Positions 1,827 to 35,463 of a stretch of 44,995 nucleotides of DNA are shown piece after piece. The translations under genes and the position numbers were made by a program. Source of the DNA: Deltaproteobacteria bacterium (GTDB lineage: Bacteria > Myxococcota_A > UBA9042 > DTJE01); the NCBI GenBank assembly GCA_016875475.1, contig VGRB01000002.1, forward strand, positions 1 through 44,995, read 5' to 3'. The notes under the pieces are model-generated. The model saw nothing but the letters and a program-made list of their open reading frames with translations, did no database searches and was not told the DNA's origin. Positions within the stretch are counted from its first letter, which is position 1. The number at the start of each line of letters is the position of its first letter.

Positions 1827-4041
1827 CCCTGCCCGCGGCGTCGATCGTCAGGGCGACGACGAGCGCACCCGGGAGCGACTGGCCCGCGGCCTTCCCGAAC
1901 GCGAGGCACCGCTTCACCGCCGGGAGGACCGCGGCCACGGCCTGGTCCACGGCACGCGCGACCTCGACGGACGCGGCCGTACCCCCGACCTCCGCGGACT
2001 CCACGGTCATCCGGACCGACAGGCGCGCCTCGACCCGCTCGTGGTCATCGCGGCGGTCGGCGGCCGGCTCCTCGGCCGCGCCGGCCGACCGCAGCATCAT
2101 GGGCGCGGAGTGGTACGCGGTCACGCCGGAGCCGCCCGTGGCGCGAGCCGGTTTCGGGGACGGCGGCGGCGCCGCCGCGGAGGGCGTTGCGACCGCTGCG
2201 CGGCCGAATCCCGCTCCGCCTCCGCCCGGGCCGACCAGGCCCGCTGCGCTCCCGTGACCCCGCACCTGCATCAGCGCCCCCGCCTTGCCCGACACGACGT
2301 TCCCGGCGACTCCGCCGGCCTCGTCGCCGTCCTCGCCTTCCCCGAACACGCCTTCCCACGACACGCCGTCCGGCAGCTCGACCGGGACCTCCACCTTGAC
2401 GGGGTCGCCGCGCTCGTTCGTGCGGACCTTCTCCTCGATCGCCACGAACGCCGTGTACCGGGACAGGACCCGGAAGCGCACGGACAGGTCGATCACGCCC
2501 CGCACCAGCGGCTCCTGCTCCCCGTTCAGCATCCGGCGCACCAGGCCGTCGATCGCGCGGCGCGCCCAGAGCGTCCGGAGCACGGTGTTGCGCGGCTCGG
2601 CCGCCGGCAGCGCGACCGCGACCGGCAGCACCACGTCCTCGCCGCCGATCCGGCCCTTCACCCGGACCGTCGCGGTGCCCGGCGCCGCGTACCGCCCGGT
2701 CACGAGCAGCGGATGCCCCGCGAACACGTCCGGCACGCGCCGGCAGGACCTCGCGCACGTCGAGCCCGCCCCAGTCGATCTCCACGTCCGTCAGCAGCGG
2801 GCTGCGCACCTGGTCGTAGAACCGCTCGATCGGCGTCCCCGCGTCCTCGTCGTACCGCACGTACTGCACGGTGCCGCGGCCCTCCAGGGCCATGTTCTCG
2901 AGCAGGTAGCGGTTCACCGACGACCCCACGCCGAACGCGTACAGGCGCGCCTCCCCGATCCGCTCGCGGATCGCGGCCAGGATCTGCGTCTCGTTCCCGA
3001 TGTACCCGTCGGTCAGGAACATCACCACCCGGAGCCGCTCGGGGTCGGGGGGGAAGTCGAGCGCCGCCCGGATGCCTGTCAGCATCTCGGTCCCGCCCTC
3101 GCCTTGCAGCGTGTCCAGGTAGGCGAGCCCGCGCCGCACGTTGTCGGGCGTGTTCGGCACCGGCAGCGGCGACATCCCGCGGGCGGACATCGAGAAGTTC
3201 AGGATCTGGAACGAATCCCCGGGGTTCAGCGCCTTCAGCGAGTGCCGCACCAGCCGCTTCGCCTGCTCGATCGGGTTGCCGCTCATCGAGCCCGAGCAGT
3301 CGAGCACGAACACCATCTCCTTCGGCGTCACGTCGGCCGGGGCGGGTCGCGCGGCCGGGACCATCATCAGCGTGAGGAAGCCGCCGTCGCCGGCCGAGGC
3401 GTGCGTCAGCAGGCCGGTCGCGACGCGCTGCGGGTCCACGTCCCACTCCAGCACGAAGTCCTTGTTCGGGATGGAGTCCTCCGGCGACAGCCGCACGATC
3501 GCGTTCGAGGCGTCGATCTGCGTGGTCACGACCTGGTGCGACTTCGACCGGAGGCCGCGGAACGGCACCCCCGCCGACAGCTTCACCGCGAGCGCGACGT
3601 CGTGCCCGGACCGCTCCCCGGGCCGCAGCACGGGCGGCGTGATCCGGTCCGCGTCTGGCACGGACTGCGGGACGCCGGGAAGCGGCGTCACCGACCCGTC
3701 CGGCGCGCAGGACGCCCCCGGGACGTAGCGCGGTCCGACCACCATCGGGAACGCCAGCGACATCGTGCCGGCGTCGTACTTCAGGTACTGCACGTACCTG
3801 ATCGTGATCTGTTCGCCCGGGCCATCAGCCCCGACACCGCGATGTCCACGTCCGTGTGCGCGAGCGGCATCTCGACCTGCCGCCCGCCCGCGAGCACCGC
3901 CGACAGCACGCCCGTGCCGGGGCCGTCCCCCCGCGCGGTCTGCGCCCCCGCGCCCTTCACGAGGGCGAAGACCATCACCACGACGGTCAGGAGCATCCCG
4001 AGGACGAGCTTCCAGGTCCCGCGGACTTCGTTCGGGTGCAT
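1768..4041 (-). pseudogene. disrupted VIT + von Willebrand factor A (vWA) domain protein gene
   Basis: The protein is split over three ORF pieces. Piece 1, 4041-3781, has a signal/TM segment plus the VIT start (...EMPLAHTDVDIAVSGLMARA). Piece 2, in the 2045..4498 frame, runs from about 3815 to about 2745 (PGEQITIRYVQYLKYD...MVFVLDCSGSMSG...GGTEM...FLTDGYIGNE, a vWA MIDAS). Piece 3, 2736-1768, begins PDVFAGHPLLVTGRY. The frame changes near 3810 and again near 2740. Confidence 0.65.
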
Positions 4042-5636: not shown

Positions 5637-9181
<3,545 letters not shown>

Positions 9182-9193
9182 AGGAGGAGCGAC

Positions 9194-10606
9194 ATGACCC
9201 CGAGCGAAGTCCTCGAATTCGCCGACAAGAACGGTTGCCGGATGGTCGATCTGAAGTTCTCGGACCTGCCCGGCGTCTGGCAGCACTTCAGCGTGCCGAT
9301 CCAGCAGCTCTCGGGGGACTCGTTCCAGGACGGGTTCGGGTTCGACGGGTCGTCGATCCGCGGGTTCCAGCAGATCCAGAACTCCGACATGCTGGTGATC
9401 CCGGACCCCGAGACCGCGGTGCTGGAGCCGTTCACCGAGGTGCCGACGCTGTCGCTGATCTGCAACGTCGTGGACCCGGTGACGCGGCTGCCGTACTCGC
9501 GCGACCCGCGCTTCATCGCGCGCAAGGCCGAGGCGTACCTGAAATCGACCGGCATCGGCGATATCGCGCACTTCGGGCCCGAGGCCGAGTTCTTCATCTT
9601 CGACGACGTGCGGTTCGACCAGGGCCGCCACTTCGGGTTCTACCACCTGGACTCGTCGGAGGGCCGCTGGAACTCGGGCCGCGACGAGGGCCCGAACCTC
9701 GGCTACAAGATCCGCTACAAGGAGGGGTACTTCCCGGTCCCGCCGACCGACTCGCTGCAGGACCTGCGCACCGAGATCGTGCTGACGCTCCAGGGGCTCG
9801 GGATCGACGTCGAGGCGCAGCACCACGAGGTCGCGAGCGCGGGCCAGTGCGAGGTGGACATGCGGTTCAGCCCGCTGACGCAGATGGGCGACCGGCTGAT
9901 GTGGTTCAAGCACGTGATCAAGAACGTGGCGCGGCGGCGCGGCAAGACCGCGACGTTCATGCCGAAGCCGCTCTTCGAGGAGAACGGCAGCGGCATGCAC
10001 TGCCACGTCAGCATCTGGAAGGCGGGCCAGAACCTCTTCTCCGGCAACCAGTACGCCGGGCTGTCCCAGATGGCCCTGCACTTCGCCGGGGGCATCCTGA
10101 GGCACGCGCCCGCGCTCTGCGCGATCACGAACCCGACGACGAACAGCTACAAGCGGCTCGTGCCGGGGTTCGAGGCGCCGGTGAACCTCGCGTACTCGTC
10201 GCGGAACCGATCCGCGGCCATCCGGATCCCGATGTACAGCGCGTCGCCGAAGTCGCGCCGGCTGGAGTTCCGGACCCCGGACCCGTCCTGCAACGGCTAC
10301 ATGGCGTTCGCGGCCATCCTGCTGGCGGGGCTCGACGGCGTCCAGCGCGAGATCGAGCCCGGGCCGCCGCTCGACAAGGACATCTACGGCCTGCCGCCGG
10401 AGGAGGCGAAGAAGGTCCCGCGCGCGCCCGGCGCGCTGACCGAGGCGCTCGACCGGCTCGAGGCGGACCACGACTTCCTGCTGGCGGGCGAGGTCTTCAC
10501 CCCCGACCTGATCGAGAAGTGGATCGACTACAAGCGGGAGGCCGAGGCGCTCCAGGTGTCGATCCGGCCTCATCCGTACGAGTTCGCTTTGTACTTCGAT
10601 ATCTAG
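9194..10606 (+). CDS. glnA: glutamine synthetase type I
   Basis: 470 aa, AGGAGG 8 nt upstream. Full-length GSI-like sequence (DLKFSDLPG..., ...MHCHVSIW..., [24 protein letters not shown]) with the adenylylation-site context [11 protein letters not shown]. Confidence 0.95.
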
Positions 10607-10631
10607 CCGGGCGGACTGAAGCCGCCCGGCT
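10605..10631 (+). terminator. GC-rich hairpin directly after the glnA stop (no U-tract)
   Basis: AGCCGGGCGG (10605-10614), 7-nt loop, CCGCCCGGCT (10622-10631). Confidence 0.4.
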
Positions 10632-10733
10632 ACCCTCGGATGAAGCCGACTCGCCCCGCCTGCGCCTTGGCCCGGCTCGACGGCAGTTCCCGGGGCTCGC
10701 GGCTTATCCTCGGCCCCCCGCTCTGGCGTGCGA

Positions 10734-10792
10734 CCCGTACCCGAGCCCGTACCCGAGCCCCAACCCGTGCCCGTGCCCGAGCCCGTGCCCGC
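10734..10792 (-). repeat. hexamer array GGG-YWC (G-rich on minus strand), about 9 units
   Basis: Plus strand reads cccgtacccgagcccgtacccgagccccaacccgtgcccgtgcccgagcccgtgccc. The region is non-coding. Confidence 0.85.
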
Positions 10793-10950
10793 CGGTTCCC
10801 CACCCCGCCCGCTCCGGCCTCGGGCCGCGCACGCTCAGGGAGGTCGCGGCGTGTCGCGCGGCGCCACCGCGGCGCGGCCCGCCGTGATGAAGGGACGGCC
10901 GTGCGCGGGCGGGGGTCTCCCGGAAGGGATTGTGCGGGCGGGCTGCGCGG

Positions 10951-11032
10951 TGCCCGAACCCGTACCCGTGCCCGAGCCCGTGTCCGTGCCCGAGCCCGAG
11001 CCCGAGCCCGTGCCCGTACCCGACTCGCCCCC
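10951..11032 (-). repeat. second hexamer array GGG-YWC (G-rich on minus strand), about 12 units
   Basis: Plus strand reads cccgaacccgtacccgtgcccgagcccgtgtccgtgcccgagcccgagcccgagcccgtgcccgtacccg. It lies about 158 nt downstream of the first array in the same orientation. Confidence 0.85.
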
Positions 11033-11187
11033 CCCCGGTACCACGCCGAGACATCTTGCGGTCGTCTGCTTTGCAGCCCGCGAACGGCCGACGTAGCATC
11101 GCGCGGGGAACGCGGTCCTCGCCCGGGGCCGCGGCGCCGAATGGCGAGCCCCCTTCATTCTTTGACAAGCCGGTTCGGATCGATCCG

Positions 11188-11340
11188 AGACAGCTCCGCC
11201 GGGGACGGTTCCGTTGCCGTGGCAGTTCCTGTCAGTCGCCGGGTGCTGGGGAACGTCCCGTCCTGTGACAATTCTTGTCAGTCGCCGGGTGCTGGGGAAC
11301 GTCCCGTCCTGTGACAATTCTTGTCAGTCGCCGGTGCTGA
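11188..11340 (+). repeat. 46-bp tandem repeat (one degenerate copy, two identical copies, one partial); likely upstream activating sequence for the pilin promoter
   Basis: Identical 46-mers tgtcagtcgccgggtgctggggaacgtcccgtcctgtgacaattct at 11230-11275 and 11276-11321. A partial copy sits at 11322-11340 and a diverged copy at about 11188-11229. Unit junctions create TGACA-ATTCT-TGTCA palindromes. Confidence 0.85.
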
Positions 11341-11412
11341 AATTTGTCCATGCGCGGTGGGCGTCGCGGTTCGATCACGAGGGATCCCCAATGCGGACGC
11401 GGAGATTGCGAC

Positions 11413-11429
11413 TGGCACACCGGTTGCAT
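11413..11429 (+). promoter_or_regulatory. sigma54 (RpoN) -24/-12 promoter of the pilin gene
   Basis: TGGCAC-ACCGG-TTGCAT matches the consensus TGGCAC-N5-TTGCW with GG and GC at exact spacing. It lies about 110 nt upstream of ATG 11538 and 73-225 nt downstream of the tandem repeats. Confidence 0.7.
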
Positions 11430-11537
11430 CTGGTGGCTTTCGCGGACGGGACGCCTCGGGAGAGAGCGGGCGTTCGAGGAATGAAGGGGCCCGGGGGCAA
11501 CGGGCAGGGGCTGAGGTTTTACAAGAGGAGGTTCGAG

Positions 11538-12119
11538 ATGCTGGGCAAGATGAGACGGTTCGGGTTCAAGGGCTTCACGCTGGTCGAGTTGATGGTCGTC
11601 GTGGCCATCCTCGGCATCCTCGCGGTCATCGCGGTGCCGGCGTTCATCAAGTACATGCGGCGCGCGAAGACCACGGAGGCGATCGACGAGCTGGACAAGA
11701 TCTACAAGGGCGCGGCGTACTACTACACCGCCCCGCACGTCGCGGCGAACGGCTCGCGCATCTTCTGCCAGTTCCCGACGACCCAGGGCCTGACCCCGGC
11801 CGATGACTGCTGCAAGACGCCGGACGCCAACCACGACGGCCGCTGCGACAGCAACACCGGCCTGTGGACCACCCCCTCCTGGTCGGCGCTGACCTTCCAG
11901 ATCAACGACGAGGTGTACTTCCAGTACTCCTTCCAGTCGAACGGGTCGGTCCGCAACTCGGCGCAGGCGACCGCGAACGCGCACGCCGACCTCGATTGCG
12001 ACACGACCTACTCGACCTTCCAGCGGCTGATGTTCGGTGATCCGTCGGCCGCCACGCAGTACGTCGAGTGCGCGCAGATCGGCGCCTCCGCGTTCTTCGT
12101 GGACAACGAGACCGAGTAA
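11538..12119 (+). CDS. type IV pilin-like protein (prepilin N-terminal cleavage/methylation domain)
   Basis: 193 aa, AGGAGG 6 nt upstream of ATG 11538. Leader MLGKMRRFGFKG followed by FTLVELMVVVAILGILAVIAVPAF, with 6 Cys in the globular part. Confidence 0.85.
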   Translation: MLGKMRRFGFKGFTLVELMVVVAILGILAVIAVPAFIKYMRRAKTTEAIDELDKIYKGAAYYYTAPHVAANGSRIFCQFPTTQGLTPADDCCKTPDANHDGRCDSNTGLWTTPSWSALTFQINDEVYFQYSFQSNGSVRNSAQATANAHADLDCDTTYSTFQRLMFGDPSAATQYVECAQIGASAFFVDNETE

Positions 12120-13543: not shown

Positions 13544-14794
13544 GTGGACAAGCTCGCCCTGTTCGGTGGCACCAAGGTCCGAAGCACGCCGTTCACGCCG
13601 TGGCCCCAGTTCGACGACCGCGAGCGGAAGTACGTGATGGACGCGCTCGAGTCGCGGCGCTGGGGCGGCTACCCGTTCCCGAGCCCGCGCGCGCTCGAGT
13701 TCGGCCGGCGGTTCGCGGAGTACCACGGCGCGCGGTACGGCATCCCCGCGGCGAACGGGACCGTGACGCTCGAGATCGCGCTCCGCGCGGCGGGCATCAA
13801 GGCGGGGGACGAGGTGATCGTGCCCTGCTACACGTTCATGGCGACGGCCTCGTGCGCGGTCCACCTGAACGCGGTGCCGGTCTTCACGGACGTGGAGGCG
13901 CGGAGCTGGTGCATGGATCCCGCGGGCGTCGAGGCCGCGATCACCCCGAAGACGAAGGCCATCATCCCGGTCCACCTCGGGCACCAGATGACCGACATGG
14001 ACCGCATCCTCGAGATCGCGAAGAGGCACGGGCTCGTGGTCATCGAGGACTGCGCGCACTCGCACGGCGGCCAGTGGCGCGGCAAGGGCGTGGGCAGCAT
14101 GGGCGACTTCGGGTCGTTCAGCTTCCAGTCGTCCAAGCTGATGACGTCCGGCGAGGGCGGCGCGATCCTCTGCAACGACGACACGTACCGCGCCAAGGTC
14201 ATGTCGCTCGTCAACTGCGGCCGCAAGGAGCCGGGGTACGACGGCTTCGACGAGCAGCTCTTCGGGTGGAACTTCCGGCTGTCCGAGCTGCAGATCGCGG
14301 TGCTCATGGGCCAGATGGACCGGCTGGACGAGGTCACGCGCAAGCGCGCCGAGATGCTCGCGTACTTCCGCGAGACCCTGCACGCGAACGTCGCCGGCCT
14401 CCGCGTGCTCGACACCGACCCCCGCGTGACCCGGCAGCACGCGTACCAGACCCTGATGCGCTTCGATTCCGCTGCGTTCGCCGGGATCCACCGCGACCGC
14501 TTCCTCCAGGCGCTGGAGGCCGAGGGCGTGGACCTCGACGGGACGTTCTACGTGCCGCTGTACCAGATCCCGATCTTCAACGCGCGGTCGGACGAGTGGC
14601 CGGCCCTGCGCGAGCGGTACGGGGAGGGGATCCTGGAAGGCGGCCGGAGCATCTCGTGCCCGGTCGCGGAGAAGGCCGCGTACGAGGAGGCGGTGTGGAT
14701 GCACTACCCGCACCTGTCCGGCTCGCGGGCGGACGTGGACGACATCGTGACGGCGATCGCGAAGGTGCAGCGACACGCGGCGGAGCTTGCGTAG
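13544..14794 (+). CDS. DegT/DnrJ/EryC1/StrS-family PLP-dependent sugar/cyclitol aminotransferase
   Basis: 416 aa from GTG 13544, GGAGGA upstream. GDEVIVPCYTFMATA..., VIEDCAHSHGG..., FSFQSSKLMTSGEGG (PLP lysine context). Confidence 0.85.
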   Translation: MDKLALFGGTKVRSTPFTPWPQFDDRERKYVMDALESRRWGGYPFPSPRALEFGRRFAEYHGARYGIPAANGTVTLEIALRAAGIKAGDEVIVPCYTFMATASCAVHLNAVPVFTDVEARSWCMDPAGVEAAITPKTKAIIPVHLGHQMTDMDRILEIAKRHGLVVIEDCAHSHGGQWRGKGVGSMGDFGSFSFQSSKLMTSGEGGAILCNDDTYRAKVMSLVNCGRKEPGYDGFDEQLFGWNFRLSELQIAVLMGQMDRLDEVTRKRAEMLAYFRETLHANVAGLRVLDTDPRVTRQHAYQTLMRFDSAAFAGIHRDRFLQALEAEGVDLDGTFYVPLYQIPIFNARSDEWPALRERYGEGILEGGRSISCPVAEKAAYEEAVWMHYPHLSGSRADVDDIVTAIAKVQRHAAELA

Positions 14795-14842
14795 GGGCGA
14801 GCGGCGAGCTCGGGCTGGGGTTCGGGTACGGGAGAGGGGAGG
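14794..14842 (+). repeat. G-tract / GGG-YWC array filling the intercistronic spacer and merging with the RBS
   Basis: ggggcgagcggcgagctcgggctggggttcgggtacgggagaggggagg lies between TAG 14792-14794 and ATG 14848. Confidence 0.75.
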
Positions 14843-14847
14843 CCGTG

Positions 14848-18686: not shown

Positions 18687-19127
18687 TCACTTCGTCCTGC
18701 GGGGGCGACCCGGGCCGCGGCGCACCGGAGCATCCGCCTGGGCGGGCTTCGGAGCGGGCGTCGGCGCCGGCTTCGGAGCGGGCGTCGGCGCCGGCTTCGG
18801 GGGGGGAGGCGGCTCCGGCGCGGCGGTCGCCTCGCTGCGGGAGCGGGACAGCTCGTGGCGAAGTCGCGAGACCTCGGACTCCAGGTCGCGGACCACGTTG
18901 CGAAGCGAGGACAGCTCGTCGCGGGTGACCAGCTCGAGCGTGCGCGCCACGAGCTTGACCTGCGCCTCGATGTTCTCGCGCATGTCCGCCTGGAGGTTCA
19001 GCGCCTGGGTCAGGAGGTTCTGGACGCGCTCGTCCGCCAGCACGCGAAGCGCGATCGGCGAGAAGCGCTCCAGGACCGCCTTCATGACCACGTCGCGCCA
19101 GAGGTCGACCACCATGGGGGGCTCCAT
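18687..19127 (-). CDS. UbiK/PhaF-like coiled-coil protein with PAPKPA repeats and an AT-hook-like basic C-terminus
   Basis: 146 aa (alternative ATG at 19115 with GGAG upstream). [30 protein letters not shown] resembles UbiK/YqiC and the PhaF N-terminal coil. The tail reads [20 protein letters not shown]...[11 protein letters not shown]. Confidence 0.5.
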
Positions 19128-23075: not shown

Positions 23076-24587
23076 TCACCCCCCGAACGCGAACAGCACC
23101 GCCCCCTCCCCTGCCCCCGCCACGCCGTCGCGCAGCATCGCGGGCAGCGCCGCGCGCACGGACGCGTGGATCGGCCGGCCGGGCCGCAGCGAGGGCGAGT
23201 CGGGCCGCCCGCCGTCCGCGTCCGACGTGACCACGCCGCCGTCCGGGTACAGCCGCGCGTCGCGGGCGAGCAGGCGGGCCGCGGAGCCGTCCAGGAACGG
23301 GTGGACGGCGGGCAGGGCGACCGCGAGCACGCGGCGCGCGAGGTCGAGCGACGGCCCGCAGTCGAAGCGGCACGGGACGTGCGGCACCAGGGTCACGGGC
23401 GAGAGCGGGTCGAGGCAGTCCAGCTCCCAGCGAAACGCGCGCGATCGGGCGTGCGCGGCGCGCAGCAGGTCGGCCGTGGTCGCGAGGCGGCCGGCCTCGA
23501 CGAACGCCTCGACGCAGCAGTCCGGGTATCCGAGCGCCCGGCCGATGCGCCGGGCGAACTCGTCCGGCTGCATGGCCCCGGACCCGCGGCCCGCGGCGAA
23601 CGCGCGCTCGACGCCGGCCGCCTCGCGGACCGCGACGGGGTCGCGCGAGAGGAAGACGTGGGCGGCCGAGGGCGCGCCGGTCGCGCCGGGGTCGAGGTCC
23701 GGGGGCGCCTCCTCGGGGGGGATCACCTCCGCGTGGAGCCCGAGACGCCGGATCAGGTCGGCCTGCCTCTCCGCCCGCCCCGCGGGGACCACGACGCGGC
23801 CGCAAGGCCGGACCCCGGTCGCGACCGCGGCCAGGTGGACGCGCCCGGACAGCCGGGTCGGGAGGTGGACACGGGCGAGCAGGCCTTCCGGGGACCGCTC
23901 GACCTCCGCCGCCTCGCCCGTCCCGAACGCGCGTATCGTCTCCCGCCGCGCCTCGCCCCGGCCGCCGGCATGCCGGAACGCGGCGAGCGGCACGCCGTCG
24001 CAGGCAAGGAGCAGCGAGCAGCGGTCGCACGGGGCGAAGTAGGCTCGCCCCGGGTCCTCGGTCGGCAGGTCGAGGGCGGGCCCTGGGCCGGACGCGGTCC
24101 ACGCGTTCGACACGACGCGGTCGGGCGACAGGCCCGGGACGAGGCAGAGCGGCGCGCCGCGGACGGCCGCGAGCCGGAAGCCGGAAGGGACGGCGCGCGC
24201 GGCGGGCAGGACGACCTCGTCCGCGGCGCACGGGTTCCCGGTGCCGGACGATGCCACGGCGACGTGCCTCAGGCGGCCCTCGGTGCGCAACGCCGCGATC
24301 GCGCCCCAGTCGCCGTCGCCGGGCAGCGCCGCCTCGACCTCGTCGAGTCCCGCCTCGACGGCGCGGAGCAGCGGCGCCTCGCGGAGGTCGGCCGCGGGCG
24401 CGCGCAGGCGGATGCGCGCGAAGCCGGCGGCCCGGGCGGCGCGGATCACGGCAATCGGAGGATCCGCGGCCGCGCCCGGCCACGCGAGGACCAGCCGGTG
24501 CCTCCGGTCCCGGGGCACCCGCGCGACGACCGCGGCGGGGTCGCCCGGCGGGACCACGTCGAGCACGGTGTCGAGCCGCGGCGCCAT
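23076..24587 (-). CDS. hypothetical protein with a C-terminal GYPDCC ... PHVPCRFDC cysteine motif
   Basis: 503 aa from ATG (cat 24585-24587), overlapping the upstream stop (TGATG). The C-terminal LGYPDCCVEAF...LVPHVPCRFDCGPS resembles what I recall of DUF483-type proteins (unverified). Confidence 0.55.
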   Translation of the reverse strand: MAPRLDTVLDVVPPGDPAAVVARVPRDRRHRLVLAWPGAAADPPIAVIRAARAAGFARIRLRAPAADLREAPLLRAVEAGLDEVEAALPGDGDWGAIAALRTEGRLRHVAVASSGTGNPCAADEVVLPAARAVPSGFRLAAVRGAPLCLVPGLSPDRVVSNAWTASGPGPALDLPTEDPGRAYFAPCDRCSLLLACDGVPLAAFRHAGGRGEARRETIRAFGTGEAAEVERSPEGLLARVHLPTRLSGRVHLAAVATGVRPCGRVVVPAGRAERQADLIRRLGLHAEVIPPEEAPPDLDPGATGAPSAAHVFLSRDPVAVREAAGVERAFAAGRGSGAMQPDEFARRIGRALGYPDCCVEAFVEAGRLATTADLLRAAHARSRAFRWELDCLDPLSPVTLVPHVPCRFDCGPSLDLARRVLAVALPAVHPFLDGSAARLLARDARLYPDGGVVTSDADGGRPDSPSLRPGRPIHASVRAALPAMLRDGVAGAGEGAVLFAFGG

Positions 24588-25582
24588 CAGTTCATCTCGG
24601 CCTCGGCCGCCTTGGCCGCCCGCATGCGCTCCAGCTCCTCCTGGATCGCCCACGCCTGGGCCTTGAGCGCCGCCCTGCCCTTCTTGCGGCGGTACGCCCA
24701 CAGGAACAGCCCGGTGATCAGGATCCAGAGGAACGCGGTCCCGGTCAGGAGCACGATCCACGACGACCACGGGTCGATGGTGCGCTCGAAGGCGCGCCAG
24801 CGGGATTCGACCGACCCGCCGAACACGTCCGCGAACGCGAGGTCGAACGGCATGCCGTTGCGCACCTGACGGACCAGATCGCGGATGCCGTCGATGCCGT
24901 GGCTCTTGTGCAGGAAGCGCAGGAACATCATGGACTCGGCGTACGCGAGGTGCACCGCCGGGGGGGCCGCGGGGAAGCCGTCCGAGAGCGCCTCGGGGCC
25001 GAGGAACGAGCCGGTCGCGGCCGCGTTCATCAGCGTCTTCAGGCGCTCGCCGAGGTCCTCGGAGGCGACGAGCATCGCGAACCCCTCGTGGAACCAGCGC
25101 GGCACGCGGCGGCCGTTCAGCGCGGTGTCGAGATAGAGGTGCGCCAGCTCGTGCACGAACACGTCGGACGAGTGGAAGACCTCGTTCCCGCGGGCGGACA
25201 TGACCACGAGGTCGCGGTCCGACATCGCGAGCCCCGCGACCCACTCGCGCACCGGCCGGCCCGCGCCCGCCATCTCCTCCATACGCTCGTCGGTGCTCGC
25301 GATCCGGACCTCGATCACGCGGTCGTCCGGCACGCCGAGGTAGCCCAGGACGAAGCGGCGCTTGTCTTCCGCGATCCCGGCGAGGCGCTCGGCGAGGCCG
25401 GAGGCGCCGTCGTCGGGGACGAAGCGGAAGTGCGGGGTGGCGATGGGGGGGGAGGCGGCGAGGGCCGGGGGGGGGAGGAGAGACAGGAACAGGGACGGGA
25501 GCAGGGGCAGGGGCAGGGACAGGCGGGTACGGACACGGGCACGGGCACGGGGACCGGGGATGGGGTGCGCGGGGTAGATCAT
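24587..25582 (-). CDS. peptidase MA-like zinc metalloprotease with N-terminal signal peptide and C-terminal TM anchor
   Basis: 331 aa. HELAHLY zinc motif followed by WFHEGFA. C-terminal helix WIVLLTGTAFLWILITGLFLWAY. The ATG overlaps the TonB-like stop (ATGA). Confidence 0.7.
   Translation of the reverse strand: MIYPAHPIPGPRARARVRTRLSLPLPLLPSLFLSLLPPPALAASPPIATPHFRFVPDDGASGLAERLAGIAEDKRRFVLGYLGVPDDRVIEVRIASTDERMEEMAGAGRPVREWVAGLAMSDRDLVVMSARGNEVFHSSDVFVHELAHLYLDTALNGRRVPRWFHEGFAMLVASEDLGERLKTLMNAAATGSFLGPEALSDGFPAAPPAVHLAYAESMMFLRFLHKSHGIDGIRDLVRQVRNGMPFDLAFADVFGGSVESRWRAFERTIDPWSSWIVLLTGTAFLWILITGLFLWAYRRKKGRAALKAQAWAIQEELERMRAAKAAEAEMN
25445..25574 (+). repeat. G-tract / hexamer array (G-rich on plus strand) lying inside the 5' coding end of the minus-strand peptidase gene
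   Basis: gggggggg...ggggcaggggcagggacaggcgggtacggacacgggcacgggcacggggaccggggatgggg. On the minus strand it is translated as PGPRARARVRTRLSLPLPLLPSLFLSLLPPP. Confidence 0.75.
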
Positions 25583-26631
25583 TCGGGCCGCTGCCAGAAC
25601 ATGTTGAATCTCGACGACGAGACCTCCAGCAGGAACCCGAAGTGGAACGCGATCCGGCCGCTGTCGTCCGCGAGCCCGATCGGCGGGTTCGGGAAGGGGC
25701 CGGCCTCGCGGAATGCCCGCATGGCCTCCTGGTCCAGGAACGGCAGGCCCGACTGCTTCGCGACGTCGAGCCGCGAGACGCGCCCGTCGGCGTCCAGCAC
25801 CACGTTCAACACGGTCAGGCGGTCCCGGCTGCCGTAGACCTTCCCGTACGGGTCGCGGGCGCGGTACATGTCGCCCGGGTTCCACTCGTCGCGCACGCGC
25901 TCCTTCACGCGCTGGAAGAAGTCGAAGTACTTGAAGCTGCGGGAGTTCACGAGCGTCGTGTCGCCTTCGTCCGGCACCCCGAGCATCGCGTCGTCGGACA
26001 CGTACCCGCCGGCCAACCCCTTCATGTTGCGGGCCGCGGCCCGGCCGCCGCCGTCGACGGTCGGCAGGAGCAGCCTGTCCATGCCGCCCATGCCGCGCAG
26101 GGTCGGCTCGCCGCCCTCCCCCGGCTGGCCCGCGGTCCGCCCGCGCTCCGGCAGGCGCACGCCCGCGCCCTCCCTGGCGTCCCCGGCCGGCTTCCGCGCG
26201 ACCTGCTTCCCGGGCGCCGCGGGTCTCGGGGCCTCGGCCGGCTCCGGCGCGGGCGCCGGGGCGGGCGCGGGCGCGGCGGCAGGGCGCTTGCGACCCCGGT
26301 CCCGCGCCTTGACCTCGCGATCCACGGCCGTGTTCCAGCGGCTCAGGAAGCGGGCGTCCGGCGGGGGAAGGCGCTCCACGTCCGGCTTCGGGATGTCGAC
26401 CACCTGCCCGTCCAGGTCGGGCTTCCTCGGCGTCCCGGACGCGAGGCCCGCCGCGGGCTTGTCCCTGACAGAGAACGTCACCCAATCCTTTGCGGGGGGC
26501 GGGGCGTCGCTCCGCCGCTCCCCCCAGCCGAGGACCACCAGCAGGATCGCGACGGCCGCGTGCGCGCCCACGGACACGGCGACGCCGATGCCGTCGCGCT
26601 GGCCGTTCGTGAAATCCCACCGGTGCATCAC
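25579..26631 (-). CDS. TonB-like energy transducer (N-terminal TM, Pro/Ala-rich spacer, TonB_C domain)
   Basis: 350 aa. TM segment GIGVAVSVGAHAAVAILLVVLGW, spacer PAAAPAPAPAPAPEPAEAP, and C-terminal ...LTVLNVVLDADGRVSRLDVAKQSGLPFLDQEAMRAFREAGPFPNPP. Confidence 0.75.
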   Translation of the reverse strand: MMHRWDFTNGQRDGIGVAVSVGAHAAVAILLVVLGWGERRSDAPPPAKDWVTFSVRDKPAAGLASGTPRKPDLDGQVVDIPKPDVERLPPPDARFLSRWNTAVDREVKARDRGRKRPAAAPAPAPAPAPEPAEAPRPAAPGKQVARKPAGDAREGAGVRLPERGRTAGQPGEGGEPTLRGMGGMDRLLLPTVDGGGRAAARNMKGLAGGYVSDDAMLGVPDEGDTTLVNSRSFKYFDFFQRVKERVRDEWNPGDMYRARDPYGKVYGSRDRLTVLNVVLDADGRVSRLDVAKQSGLPFLDQEAMRAFREAGPFPNPPIGLADDSGRIAFHFGFLLEVSSSRFNMFWQRPE

Positions 26632-31766: not shown

Positions 31767-32555
31767 GTGGACGCGGACTCGCCAGACGCCGGCGCCCCCG
31801 CGGGAGAGACCGGGATCCTCGGCCTCGCGGACCGCGGCACGGGGTTCCCGCAGGACAAGATCAGGTGCCAGGGGACGAGCCTCCGGTACGTGGTCGCCTG
31901 CATGCACAACTGCCGGGAGCGGCATTACTGCAACGAGTTCTGGGAGTTCTTTCGCGCCCGCGGCATCACGCCGGCCCAGTACGCCGGCCAGGACGCGATC
32001 GGGGAGGTGGTCATGAAGAGGGTCGTGTTCGATTGCGATCGGTGCGGGAAGAAGGACGTGGGGGAGCCGTTCTCGGCCTACCGGACGTCCGGCCCGGACG
32101 AGGGCGCGGTCCTGGACCCGGCCGCGTTCCACGAGGTCGCGTCCAAGGCGGGCCCGGCCCAGTGCCCGGAGCCGTTCCTCCTGTCGATCCTGGGACTGCT
32201 GAAGGAGCAGCAGGCCTGGGAACACCTGTGCGAGGCGTGCTTCCGGAAGGTCGCGGGCCTCGCCGGCGGGATCGTCGGCCGGCCGGTCGCGAAGCCGGTC
32301 GCGTCCGAGGCCGCGAAGACGCCCGTGGCGCGCGCGCTCGCGGCCGAGCCGAAGCCGGTCGCGCGGGTGACGGAGCCGAAGGTCGCGCTGAAGCCGGAGC
32401 CCAGGGCAGCGACCCGGGCGCCCGAGCCGAAGCCGGTCCCGGCGCCGAAGGCGAACGCGCACGCGAAGCCCGGGCCGAAGCCGGTGGCCAGGCCCCTCGA
32501 CCTGATGCCGTTGCCGGAGCCGGCGCACCGCGGGCGGAAGGCGGCGCGGGCGTAA
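31767..32555 (+). CDS. hypothetical Cys-pair (zinc-ribbon-like) protein with a Pro/Lys/Ala-rich basic C-terminal tail; start uncertain (31767 GTG, 31902 ATG or 32013 ATG)
   Basis: One frame with about 90% GC3 runs from 31767. CxxC pairs occur at FDCDRCGKK and LCEACF, and C-x3-C at ACMHNC. The tail reads AKPVASEAAKTPVA...EPKPVPAPKANAHAKPGPKPVA. TGCTAATAT (31751-31759) lies 7 nt before GTG 31767. ATG 32013 has GGGGAGG upstream. Confidence 0.5.
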   Translation: MDADSPDAGAPAGETGILGLADRGTGFPQDKIRCQGTSLRYVVACMHNCRERHYCNEFWEFFRARGITPAQYAGQDAIGEVVMKRVVFDCDRCGKKDVGEPFSAYRTSGPDEGAVLDPAAFHEVASKAGPAQCPEPFLLSILGLLKEQQAWEHLCEACFRKVAGLAGGIVGRPVAKPVASEAAKTPVARALAAEPKPVARVTEPKVALKPEPRAATRAPEPKPVPAPKANAHAKPGPKPVARPLDLMPLPEPAHRGRKAARA

Positions 32556-32558
32556 GGT

Positions 32559-32613
32559 GGGGATCGGAATCGGGAAAGATCGGGTACGGGCTCGGGGCCG
32601 GCTGAAGCCGGCT
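32559..32613 (+). repeat. G-tract / GGG-YWC array followed by a GCCGGC-TGAA-GCCGGC hairpin between convergent genes
   Basis: ggggatcggaatcgggaaagatcgggtacgggctcgggg (32559-32597), then gccggctgaagccggc (32598-32613). Confidence 0.7.
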
Positions 32614-34532: not shown

Positions 34533-34578
34533 CGTTTCCTCCCGGTCCCTGCCCGTACCCGAGCCCGCTCCCCCGACC
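34533..34578 (-). repeat. G-tract / GGG-YWC array occupying the whole beta-gamma intercistronic spacer (G-rich on the mRNA strand)
   Basis: Minus strand reads GGGTCGGGGGAGCGGGCTCGGGTACGGGCAGGGACCGGGAGGAAACG, followed directly by ATG. Confidence 0.8.
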
Positions 34579-35463
34579 CTACTCCCCGTACCGCCGGTAC
34601 CGCGGCCCCAGCACCTTCTCGAAGTGGGCGTTCATGCCGTCCAGCCAGGTCTCGCGCTCGCGGTCCACGAACTTCCCGACCACGATGTCGCCCTGGAAGC
34701 CGAGCGCGACCTCCTTCGTGGCGGCGCCGTGCTTCACCACGCTGCGCTCCTTGTAGTACTTCACCTGGTCCACGCCGTCGCCGAGCTTGTTCCGGCGCGA
34801 GTAGAGCGTGGGGCACGGCGCGAGGACCTCGACGAAGGTGAAGCCGGGCTTCGAGATCGCCTCGTGCATGGCGCGCGTGAGCTGCTTGACGTGGAAGACC
34901 GTCCAGCGCGCCACGTAGACCGCGCCGCACGCGTCCGCCAGGAAAGGCAGGTTGAACGGGTTCTCGAAGTTGCCGTAAGGCATCGTGGTCTGCGACGCGC
35001 CGATCGGCGTGGTCGGCGCGAGCTGTCCGCCGGTCATTCCGTATGTGAAGTTGTTCACACAGATGACCGTGAGGTCCATGTTCCGGCGGGCGGCGTGCAC
35101 GAAGTGGTTGCCGCCGATGGCGAACAGGTCGCCGTCGCCCGAGTAGACCACGACCTTCAGCTTCGGGTTCGATAGCTTCAGGCCCGTGGCGAACGGGATC
35201 GCCCGGCCGTGGGTCGTGTGGAACGAGTCGAGGTTCAGGTACCCGGCGACGCGGCCGGTGCACCCGATCCCGGACACGATCGCGACCTGGTCCAGGTCCC
35301 TCTTCGACTCGGTCAGGGCGCGCGCGAAGCAGTTCACCGTCGTGCCGATGCCGCATCCCGGGCACCAGATGTGCGGGATCCGCTCCTGGCGCAGGTACGG
35401 GATGACCGGGTTCTCGACCGGGTACTCCCGCTCGTCCGCCGCGATTGCGAGGTTCTGGCTCAT
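34579..35463 (-). CDS. korB: 2-oxoacid:ferredoxin oxidoreductase, beta (TPP-binding) subunit
   Basis: 294 aa. WCPGCGIG..., GIGCTGR..., and the GDGDLFAIGGNHFVHAARRN TPP motif. Confidence 0.9.
   Translation of the reverse strand: MSQNLAIAADEREYPVENPVIPYLRQERIPHIWCPGCGIGTTVNCFARALTESKRDLDQVAIVSGIGCTGRVAGYLNLDSFHTTHGRAIPFATGLKLSNPKLKVVVYSGDGDLFAIGGNHFVHAARRNMDLTVICVNNFTYGMTGGQLAPTTPIGASQTTMPYGNFENPFNLPFLADACGAVYVARWTVFHVKQLTRAMHEAISKPGFTFVEVLAPCPTLYSRRNKLGDGVDQVKYYKERSVVKHGAATKEVALGFQGDIVVGKFVDRERETWLDGMNAHFEKVLGPRYRRYGE

Follow-up and report, generated by a model that had tools for sequence, protein, structure and literature searches.

A 44,995-nucleotide stretch of a Deltaproteobacteria bacterium genome (contig VGRB01000002.1 of assembly GCA_016875475.1; hereafter the window) contains arrays of G-rich hexamers of the form GGGYWC. 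These arrays are non-random, occur beyond what base composition would yield by chance, are found on both strands and are mostly non-coding. We put at about even odds (probability roughly 0.5) the explanation that they are lineage-specific, quadruplex-prone non-coding arrays that arose locally and possibly tune the translation of downstream genes. Six non-coding arrays (1a, 1b, 2, 4, 5 and 6) are present in 45 kb at five intergenic loci, with the G-rich strand being the plus strand at three loci and the minus strand at two, in agreement with the two orientations reported in the initial annotation of this DNA.

The window was compared with 200 dinucleotide-preserving shuffles of itself. It was found to contain 13 GGGYWC runs of at least two units against a shuffle mean of 0.33 (maximum 3), and 5 runs of at least three units against a mean of 0. 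The relaxed pattern GGGNNN gave 9 runs of at least four units (shuffle mean 0.07), and canonical G-quadruplex (G4) motifs numbered 26 (shuffle mean 9.6). The array frequency within the window is thus far above that of the shuffled controls. A single GGGYWC run of at least three units was found in 1.22 Mb of other bacterial loci, 95 kb of which has at least 65% G+C. Intergenic DNA makes up 8.6% of the window and contains 8 of the 13 strict GGGYWC runs. After merging, 8 of 22 G4 motifs are intergenic (binomial P = 3e-4), or 9 of 22 when a motif in the 5′ untranslated region (UTR) of a pilin gene is counted. The spacers that carry arrays have a G-C skew of +0.33 to +0.49, whereas most other spacers are at or below 0. 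Since array-free spacers are not G-rich, the arrays do not simply represent the upper end of an overall G-richness of 5′ UTRs, and this candidate explanation was rejected.

The arrays had been proposed to consist of 5–12 hexamers at eight or more sites. Direct inspection finds the listed sequences in place, and every listed site contains at least four G3+N1-7 repeats. The proposed array length holds for 10734–10793 (8 of 9 units strict), 10950–11027 (11 of 12) and 41971–42000 (five strict units plus two variants); indeed, at least five strict units occur only in 10734–10793, 10950–11027 and 41967–42017, i.e. in three arrays at two loci. By contrast, 14794–14842, 32559–32597 and 34533–34578 possess two strict units each, set within 4–8 G-tracts, and 25445–25574 is a heterogeneous G-rich stretch of period 6. 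Similarly, the statement that most copies are intergenic applies to five loci, but not to 25445–25574, 39225–39300 and 43755–43782, which are translated. The listed set is heterogeneous, with three coding sites in three different frames and three others with two strict units. The 15-mer GGGCTCGGGTACGGG is shared exactly between 10737–10760 and 34555–34569 (both on the minus strand), and its permuted versions at 32582–32596 and 14818–14832 are likewise exact.

Arrays 1a, 1b and 6, the three long ones, together provide 28 units, whose in-register alignment reveals the unit anatomy. G is present in 28/28 units at positions 1 and 2 and in 27/28 at position 3, while position 6 is C in 26/28. Position 4 is occupied by C (18 units), T (8) or G (2), and position 5 by A or T (14 units each), never by G or C despite the 73% G+C content of the genome. 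The resulting loop trimers are CTC (10), CAC (8), TAC (4), TTC (3) and others (3). Non-consensus cells amount to 24 of 56 at positions 4–5 compared to 3 of 112 at positions 1, 2, 3 and 6 (Fisher P = 8e-11), thus confirming that variation is concentrated at positions 4–5. The initial annotation took this as a signature of slippage, an interpretation we do not retain: neutral decay of a slippage-generated array would also strike the G's, and hence the pattern suggests either constraint or unit-level homogenisation. The position-6 C and the position-5 A/T are informative in this respect, as their invariance is independent of the recognition of arrays by their G-tracts. If constraint is the cause, the G3 tracts, the final C and the A/T at the loop centre would be the features kept. 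The kept pattern would preserve at least four evenly spaced G-tracts with G-free loops, as a three-tetrad quadruplex needs.

Three arrays adjoin ribosome-binding sites on the mRNA strand. Array 2 (14812–14841, plus strand) reads GGGCTG GGGTTC GGGTAC GGGAGA GGGGAG and is located in a 50-nt spacer (14795–14844) between the stop codon of a DegT-family aminotransferase gene and the start of a GFO/IDH/MocA oxidoreductase gene, with its last G-tracts (GGGGAGG) constituting the ribosome-binding site. Array 5 (34541–34578, minus strand) reads GGTCGGGGGAGC GGGCTC GGGTAC GGGCAG GGACCG GGAGG AAACG ATG, and fills the 46-nt spacer (34533–34578) that leads from the stop codon of the beta gene of a 2-oxoacid:ferredoxin oxidoreductase to the ribosome-binding site of the gamma gene. 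Both arrays occupy the entire spacer from stop codon to Shine-Dalgarno sequence, the latter being formed by their last G-tracts (GGGAGG in the case of array 5). Array 6 (41967–42017, plus strand) consists of three GGGCTC and two GGGTTC units followed by GGGGAC, GGGGAA and AAGGG. It abuts ATG 42018 (or GTG 42042) of a second DegT-family gene in a divergent intergenic region, with irregular G-tracts upstream at 41920–41956.

Array 4 (32572–32597, plus strand; GGG AAAGATC GGG TAC GGG CTC GGGG, preceded by GGGGATCGGAATC) is located between convergent genes and continues into a terminator-like GCCGGC-TGAA-GCCGGC hairpin. Its G-rich stretch starts at 32559, 3 nt past the stop codon of the plus-strand gene 31767–32555, and the array proper starts 16 nt past it. 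The corresponding sense-strand distances are 16–17 nt for array 2, around which the G-rich stretch starts 0 nt behind the stop codon, and 0 nt for array 5. Hairpins of similar type, with a GCCGG(G)C-type stem, a CTGAAG or TGAA loop and no U-tract, follow glnA (10607–10635) and gene 31767–32555 (32594–32612). These two hairpins may represent a terminator style of the host that is missed by a consensus terminator scan.

Arrays 2, 4 and 5 thus lie in the first bases behind a stop codon, and the placement of the arrays overall would be explained if they persist where sequence is least constrained, i.e. behind stops, in intercistronic spacers and in 5′ or 3′ UTRs, or in translated form within signal peptides and linkers. 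For arrays 2, 5 and 6, an mRNA quadruplex that includes or abuts the Shine-Dalgarno G's would set the translation of the downstream cistron. The pattern of constraint and the location of the arrays are both in keeping with a spacer that forms a quadruplex and could tune downstream translation.

The quadruplex potential of the arrays was assessed at the level of G-tracts and by RNA folding. The (G3+N1-7)x4 pattern is matched by 13, 5 and 7 G-tracts in 10734–11036, by 5 in 14812–14839, by 4 in 32572–32597, by 8 in 34541–34587 and by 6 plus 10 in 41920–42024. When folded using ViennaRNA with its G4 energy model, a quadruplex is part of the predicted minimum-energy fold of array 2 (gain of 8.6 kcal/mol), array 5 (10.1 kcal/mol) and array 6 (24.7 kcal/mol), and so the predicted RNA quadruplexes adjoin three ribosome-binding sites. 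For array 1b, array 4 and the motif in the pilin 5′ UTR, the minimum-energy folds lack a G4.

The largest arrays form a double array (10734–11027) downstream of glnA. Array 1a (10734–10793, minus strand) comprises nine in-register hexamers (GGGCAC GGGCTC GGGCAC GGGCAC GGGTTG GGGCTC GGGTAC GGGCTC GGGTAC). It begins 127 nt past the glnA stop codon, beyond the terminator hairpin, and shows a coding signal in no frame. Array 1b (10950–11027, minus strand) comprises twelve in-register hexamers, 11 strict ones and GGACAC, and is directly followed by a C9 homopolymer run (11028–11036). The two arrays are separated by a G+C-rich core of 156 bp (10794–10949), which folds no better than its shuffles (z = -1.2 and -1.1) and for which no function could be detected. 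Both arrays are G-rich on the strand opposite glnA as well as the pilin gene; any action of the double array would be at the DNA level, with the G-rich strand being the non-sense strand of both neighbours. A 15-nt direct repeat, CCGACTCGCCCC(G/C)CC, flanks the double-array region at 10646–10660 and 11020–11034 (374 bp start-to-start), and could be either a chance occurrence or the scar of an insertion or duplication.

It can be envisaged that the double array acts through a partner in trans. The strict 6-nt periodicity and invariant triplet might be read by a protein that recognises G/C triplets 6 nt apart, in the manner of TRAP, which reads GAG/UAG triplets on RNA. Alternatively, a C-rich RNA transcribed from the plus strand of 10734–11027 (CCCGWR repeats) might pair with arrays 2, 5 and 6. 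The 15-mer in the array 5 mRNA has its exact complement in the plus-strand RNA of array 1a, and since the glnA hairpin has no U-tract, read-through transcripts would carry both long arrays. However, complementarity follows automatically when arrays share their units, a search for structure in the intervening core gave no significant signal, and a candidate binding protein was not identified. Furthermore, no sigma-70 promoter or intrinsic terminator was detected around 10734–11027, and Rfam gave zero matches across the window, the core included. We therefore view a trans-acting partner as decidedly unlikely. The consensus of Myxococcus FruA (GGGYR-N4-6-YGGGR) was also considered and rejected, as its spacing does not fit.

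Whether the arrays are translated was considered in light of the three look-alike stretches that are. The first (25445–25574, plus strand) is antisense to the first 46 codons of a Peptidase_MA_2 gene (24587–25582, minus strand), which specify the signal peptide MIYPAHPIPGPRARARVRTRLSLPLPLLPSLFLSLLPPPALAAS. ATG 25582 is the sole in-frame start upstream of the conserved part of the peptidase, and overlaps the stop codon of a TonB-like gene as ATGA. The n-region of the signal peptide (PRARARVRTR) is an 18-residue insertion when compared to the homologue in the relative L083, with the hexamer repeats reading Arg-Ala/Val/Thr. The insertion contains four CGT Arg codons, a codon that accounts for 2.4% of Arg codons in window genes. 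Runs of G8 (25445–25452) and G9 (25466–25474) are located within these signal-peptide codons. The second stretch (39225–39300, plus strand) is antisense to the PEPAPAPELAPEPEPAPAPEPAP linker (PEPAPAPE-type) of a membrane protein (39108–39767, minus strand), and had correctly been identified as a coding version. About half of its units are GGGCGC or GGGTGC, with G at position 5. The non-coding arrays differ in this respect, and are hence not simply dead proline-rich linkers. The third (GGACGGGCTCGGGGACGGGCTCGGGGTG, 43755–43782, plus strand) is located inside a carbamoyltransferase gene and translates as DGLGDGLG. The three stretches are read in three different frames, i.e. as (R-A/V/T)n, (E/A-P)n and G-L-G-D. 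A separate proline-rich coding microsatellite, a 24-bp tandem repeat of 3.1 copies, occurs at 18745–18819 in gene 18687–19127 (minus strand); its units encode Ala/Lys/Thr-Pro and are unlike those of the non-coding arrays.

The NCBI annotation places a hypothetical open reading frame (ORF) of 81 amino acids (10851–11096, plus strand) across array 1b, with GGGAGG positioned 7 nt before a GTG start as a possible ribosome-binding site. This raises the prospect that the arrays encode low-complexity peptides, read as (E/V-P)n from the C-rich strand or as (G-L/Y/H/F)n from the G-rich one, in small genes or gene extensions. Arrays 1a and 1b are open in the same frame on both strands, the codons of the G-X frame all end in G or C, and the three look-alikes truly are coding. 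However, the ORF is a singleton, with zero homologues among 1.84e9 representative proteins and no Pfam match. Its score per codon is -0.04, that of the minus-strand ORF is -0.05 and that of the minus-frame inter-array part is -0.25, compared to 0.53 ± 0.15 for 81-codon pieces of real genes (5th percentile 0.275). GTA and GAA, both rare codons, turn up repeatedly in the arrays, the Val-Pro reading in particular using GTA, which accounts for 0.5% of Val codons in real genes. Arrays 2, 4 and 5 are located between a stop codon and the next gene, and their frames relative to the neighbouring genes are inconsistent. Arrays 1a, 1b, 2, 4, 5 and 6 are non-coding, and translation into low-complexity peptides is very unlikely. 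Because it is an orphan among 1.84 billion proteins and has non-coding codon statistics, the 81-amino-acid ORF is almost certainly a false gene prediction, provoked by the absence of stop codons in the repeat. The practical lesson is that such arrays draw spurious gene calls, as exemplified by this NCBI entry.

Comparison to other assemblies and to relatives provides insight into the origin of the arrays. Short contigs of the same strain, 99.8–100% identical to the window, are present in four other samples. This strain comparison covers arrays 2, 4 and 5; no other assembly was found to cross arrays 1 or 6. Array 2 is identical in L081 and L082, array 4 in L208 and array 5 in four other assemblies. 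Active slippage is unproven, as the copy number is the same at all three sites in these 2–4 assemblies. Turning to more distant genomes, L083 (68% identity, 61% G+C) possesses a syntenic DegT-GFO spacer that is devoid of an array. In L212–L214 (around 2990–3020), the oxidoreductase beta and gamma genes overlap by 14 nt and have no spacer at all, the window counterpart being 34533–34611. The spacer occupied by array 5 is similar to the final 27 nt of the beta gene (a score reached by 9 of 1000 shuffles). On this sequence comparison, the beta/gamma spacer has the appearance of a tandem duplicate of the beta gene end that has since diverged, which would be a case of an overlap resolved by duplication. 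The spacer at 34541–34578 would replace the overlap coupling found in the relatives. The absence of arrays from relatives, together with the resemblance of array 5 to the adjacent gene end, makes the arrays look like young, lineage-specific insertions that were at least partly generated locally. They would have arisen in place via local duplication and slipped-strand copying, and not by transposition.

The flanks of nine sites were found to be unrelated, the sole match beyond the hexamers being the 15-nt direct repeat around 10734–11027, and this argues against a mobile element. Mobile dispersed repeats, whether of the repetitive extragenic palindromic (REP) or bacterial interspersed mosaic element (BIME) type or miniature inverted-repeat transposable elements (MITE), were rejected because the copies share no common non-array sequence, terminal inverted repeats or palindromic core. 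A role as phase-variation (contingency) repeat was also rejected: a 6-nt unit is frame-neutral, no polymorphism was seen, and the neighbouring genes are mostly housekeeping.

A scan of metagenomes for (GGGYWC)5 returned at least 120 loci, and most of those listed are pure (GGGTTC)n, (GGGCTC)n or (GGGCAC)n microsatellites. Marine samples contributed many of the listed matches; these have TTA variants at contig ends and are probably eukaryotic or telomere-like. Among the matches listed, many GC-rich bacterial arrays are coding (EP)n/(VP)n linkers (L092, L123, L148, L201), and a few are mixed-unit non-coding arrays located 0–28 nt behind stop codons (L115, L196, L135, L110). No further contigs of the same organism were recovered among the listed matches. 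The tetranucleotide signatures of L115 and L135 correlate with that of the window at 0.90–0.91, while true same-genome pieces reach 0.98–0.99. Hence, the L115-type arrays stem from other organisms, and the stop-proximal habit is not unique to this genome.

These observations bear on the possibility that the arrays are tolerated by-products of mutation. According to this serious rival, slippage or local duplication generates arrays that have no role, the region behind stop codons is merely the least constrained, and the uniformity of the units reflects recent expansion of a few seed units. The abundance of plain (GGGCTC)n, (GGGTTC)n and (GGGCAC)n microsatellites among the metagenome matches listed, with GC-rich bacteria often having coding (EP)n, is in line with this, as are the youth of the arrays implied by their absence from relatives and the likeness of array 5 to a duplicate of the adjacent gene end. 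In contrast, the loci share a restricted set of units, position 5 is always A or T and there is almost no G-to-A change in ~84 tract G's, whereas neutral arrays evolving independently would be expected to drift at every position in a genome of 73% G+C. Furthermore, array 5 appears locally derived and yet carries the exact 15-mer of array 1a, with a chance of ~1e-3 as estimated from base composition. Length polymorphism was not seen, although the assemblies are nearly clonal. On balance, we consider a purely neutral origin doubtful.

Several observations weigh against the favoured reading of quadruplex-prone arrays that tune translation. The invariance of GGG is partly built in, as arrays are recognised by their G-tracts. 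The orientation relative to transcription is mixed, with three arrays being sense near ribosome-binding sites, one sense in a 3′ UTR and two antisense. Quadruplex folding is predicted by the energy model, and that model also has the GGGCUC units of array 1b pairing mutually as a hairpin instead of a G4, and the terminator hairpin outcompeting the G4 at array 4. There is no length polymorphism at arrays 2, 4 and 5 in the 2–4 nearly clonal assemblies (99.8–100%). A duplication origin of array 2 was dropped, as 207 of 1000 shuffles reach the score, which is not significant. A genome-wide family is an extrapolation from 45 kb of one genome. Finally, no function has been established for the analogous G-rich heptamer arrays of other bacteria (PMC4692102), which adds to the case for neutrality; the arrays described here could hence be tolerated by-products.

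A bolder extension of the favoured reading posits a genome-wide post-transcriptional layer, in which GGGYWC RNA quadruplexes between stop codons and ribosome-binding sites would gate downstream cistrons in response to K+ or helicases, replace overlap coupling, and be released by pairing with a C-rich transcript of 10734–11027. We regard this extension as unlikely. If true, repeats would encode a regulon in a bacterial group in which selection supposedly acts against RNA quadruplexes on the sense strand. Bacterial quadruplex-prone repeat families are known from very few lineages. The hexamer family combines strict G-tracts, A/T-centred G-free loops and placement from stop codon to ribosome-binding site, with one ancestral overlap replaced. 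The arrays hence offer a simple system for asking whether quadruplexes tune expression within operons or are tolerated products of slippage.

The window, a complete metagenome contig present in both JGI and NCBI, is an ordinary chromosomal segment with ~40 genes and a coding density of ~91%, as judged by frame-specific GC analysis and Pfam. Its G+C content is 69–77%, with that of the genome being about 73%. The genes include glnB-glnA, the type IV pilin gene, sugar-modifying enzymes, GAPDH, ExbD/TonB, a four-subunit 2-oxoacid:ferredoxin oxidoreductase, a radical-SAM enzyme and a carbamoyltransferase. One window enzyme has its best named relatives in Myxococcota (~60% identity) and a closest relative at 78%; the host lineage is probably Myxococcota. 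Upstream context differs in the relative L086 (78%). A search of species representatives with GlnA found none above 70% identity, and a homologue search with the oxidoreductase gamma subunit found no relative above 80% identity. In L083 (7173–11269), the genes for SpoIID, pilin and a GH4 glycosidase are located side by side, the window counterpart being 5637–12119. In the window, an amino-acid permease gene, glnB, glnA and the double array are interposed between the SpoIID and pilin genes. The gene order thus differs from L083 at this point, placing the largest arrays at a gene-order break.

The pilin gene itself (type IV, 11538–12119, with an N_methyl motif) has a perfect sigma-54 promoter, TGGCAC-N5-TTGCA, at 11413–11428. 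Between this promoter and ATG 11538, the 5′ UTR contains an irregular G4 motif (GGGGCCCGGGGGCAACGGGCAGGGG, 11486–11510, plus strand) with no hexamer array; its irregular G-tracts set it apart from the arrays, as had been proposed. A 46-bp tandem repeat of 2.7 copies (11219–11339) is positioned ~75–195 nt upstream of the promoter, each copy containing the palindrome TGTGACAATTCTTGTCA. These palindromes are probably sites for a PilR-type enhancer-binding protein. L081 and L082 begin at window position 11305, inside this tandem repeat, i.e. the assemblies break there.

The double array precedes the sole pilin gene of the window by 500–800 bp, a proximity that evokes the pilE-associated G4 of Neisseria gonorrhoeae reportedly described by Cahoon and Seifert. 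The resemblance consists of a quadruplex-capable G-rich sequence upstream of a type IV pilin gene. A comparable element here would initiate recombination and drive antigenic variation of the pilin, and the extra G4 motif in the pilin 5′ UTR and the surrounding sugar-modifying genes could be accommodated by such a role. The pilE element is, however, a single 16-nt G4, whereas the arrays described here are long, consist of hexamers and occur at unrelated genes as well, including housekeeping, ferredoxin oxidoreductase and aminotransferase genes. In addition, blastn of the pilin gene against the 45-kb window finds only itself, revealing no silent pilin copies, no adjacent promoter is detectable and the pilin sequence is identical across assemblies. 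A pilE-like role is thus extremely unlikely.

Two further systems resemble parts of the array set. Coding (Glu-Pro)n, (Val-Pro)n and (Ala-Pro)n linkers of the TonB type are built from GAGCCC, GTGCCC and GTACCC, the reverse complements of GGGCTC, GGGCAC and GGGTAC, and are present in the window too (39225–39300 and the TonB-like gene 25579–26631). The six non-coding arrays differ in being located outside genes or failing coding tests and in using the rare GTA; Ala-Pro units (GGGCGC, GGGTGC) dominate the linkers and are missing from the non-coding arrays. With respect to the proposed effect on translation, Holder and Hartig are said to have placed G4s at different positions in E. coli reporter constructs, with a G4 at the Shine-Dalgarno sequence reported to depress translation. 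The arrays at 14812–14841 and 34541–34578 similarly overlap or abut the Shine-Dalgarno sequence on the mRNA strand. They differ from those E. coli reporters in representing a repeat-family motif known from sequence, and not a single regulatory site.

The closest known class is that of the heptamer arrays of Xanthomonas (GGGAATC) and Nostoc/Anabaena (GGGGA(C/T)T, STRR-type), which are ~90% intergenic and occur on both strands (Rehm et al. 2015, PLoS One, PMC4692102). GGGAATC repeats number ~186 per Xanthomonas genome, and the heptamer arrays prefer four units, form G4 in vitro and are transcribed (PMC4692102). They lie no more than ~50 bp from the upstream ORF's stop codon, or antisense just upstream of an ORF (PMC4692102). 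Arrays 2, 4 and 5 show the same stop-proximal location, while array 1a is 127 nt away and array 6, in a divergent promoter region, occupies a position that the heptamers avoid. Both sets consist of short head-to-tail units with a G3-4 tract and an A/T-containing, G-free spacer, scattered on both strands with a strong non-coding bias. They are preferentially found a few tens of bases or less past a stop codon, or in the spacers of co-directional genes, typically have at least four G-tracts, and neighbour genes of all functional classes. They differ in the unit, which is 6 nt (GGGYWC) here and 7 nt (GGGNATC or GGGGAYT) in the heptamers, in the mixing of units within an array as opposed to near-perfect copies, and in the host, here an uncultured bacterium of ~73% G+C that is probably a member of the Myxococcota. 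The heptamers have been shown to be abundant across genomes, to fold in vitro and to vary in length between strains, whereas the hexamers are described here from 45 kb of sequence. Prokaryotic hexanucleotide repeats are usually found in coding sequence (short-tandem-repeat survey, PMC12699852), making a non-coding hexamer family somewhat unusual. The initial annotation knew of no described repeat family with this unit; the GGGYWC unit was indeed not found in the literature searched, but the class to which it appears to belong has been described (GGGAATC/GGGGAYT, PMC4692102). By analogy, the GGGYWC arrays can be regarded as a six-base counterpart of the quadruplex-prone heptamer arrays, with a different unit sequence.

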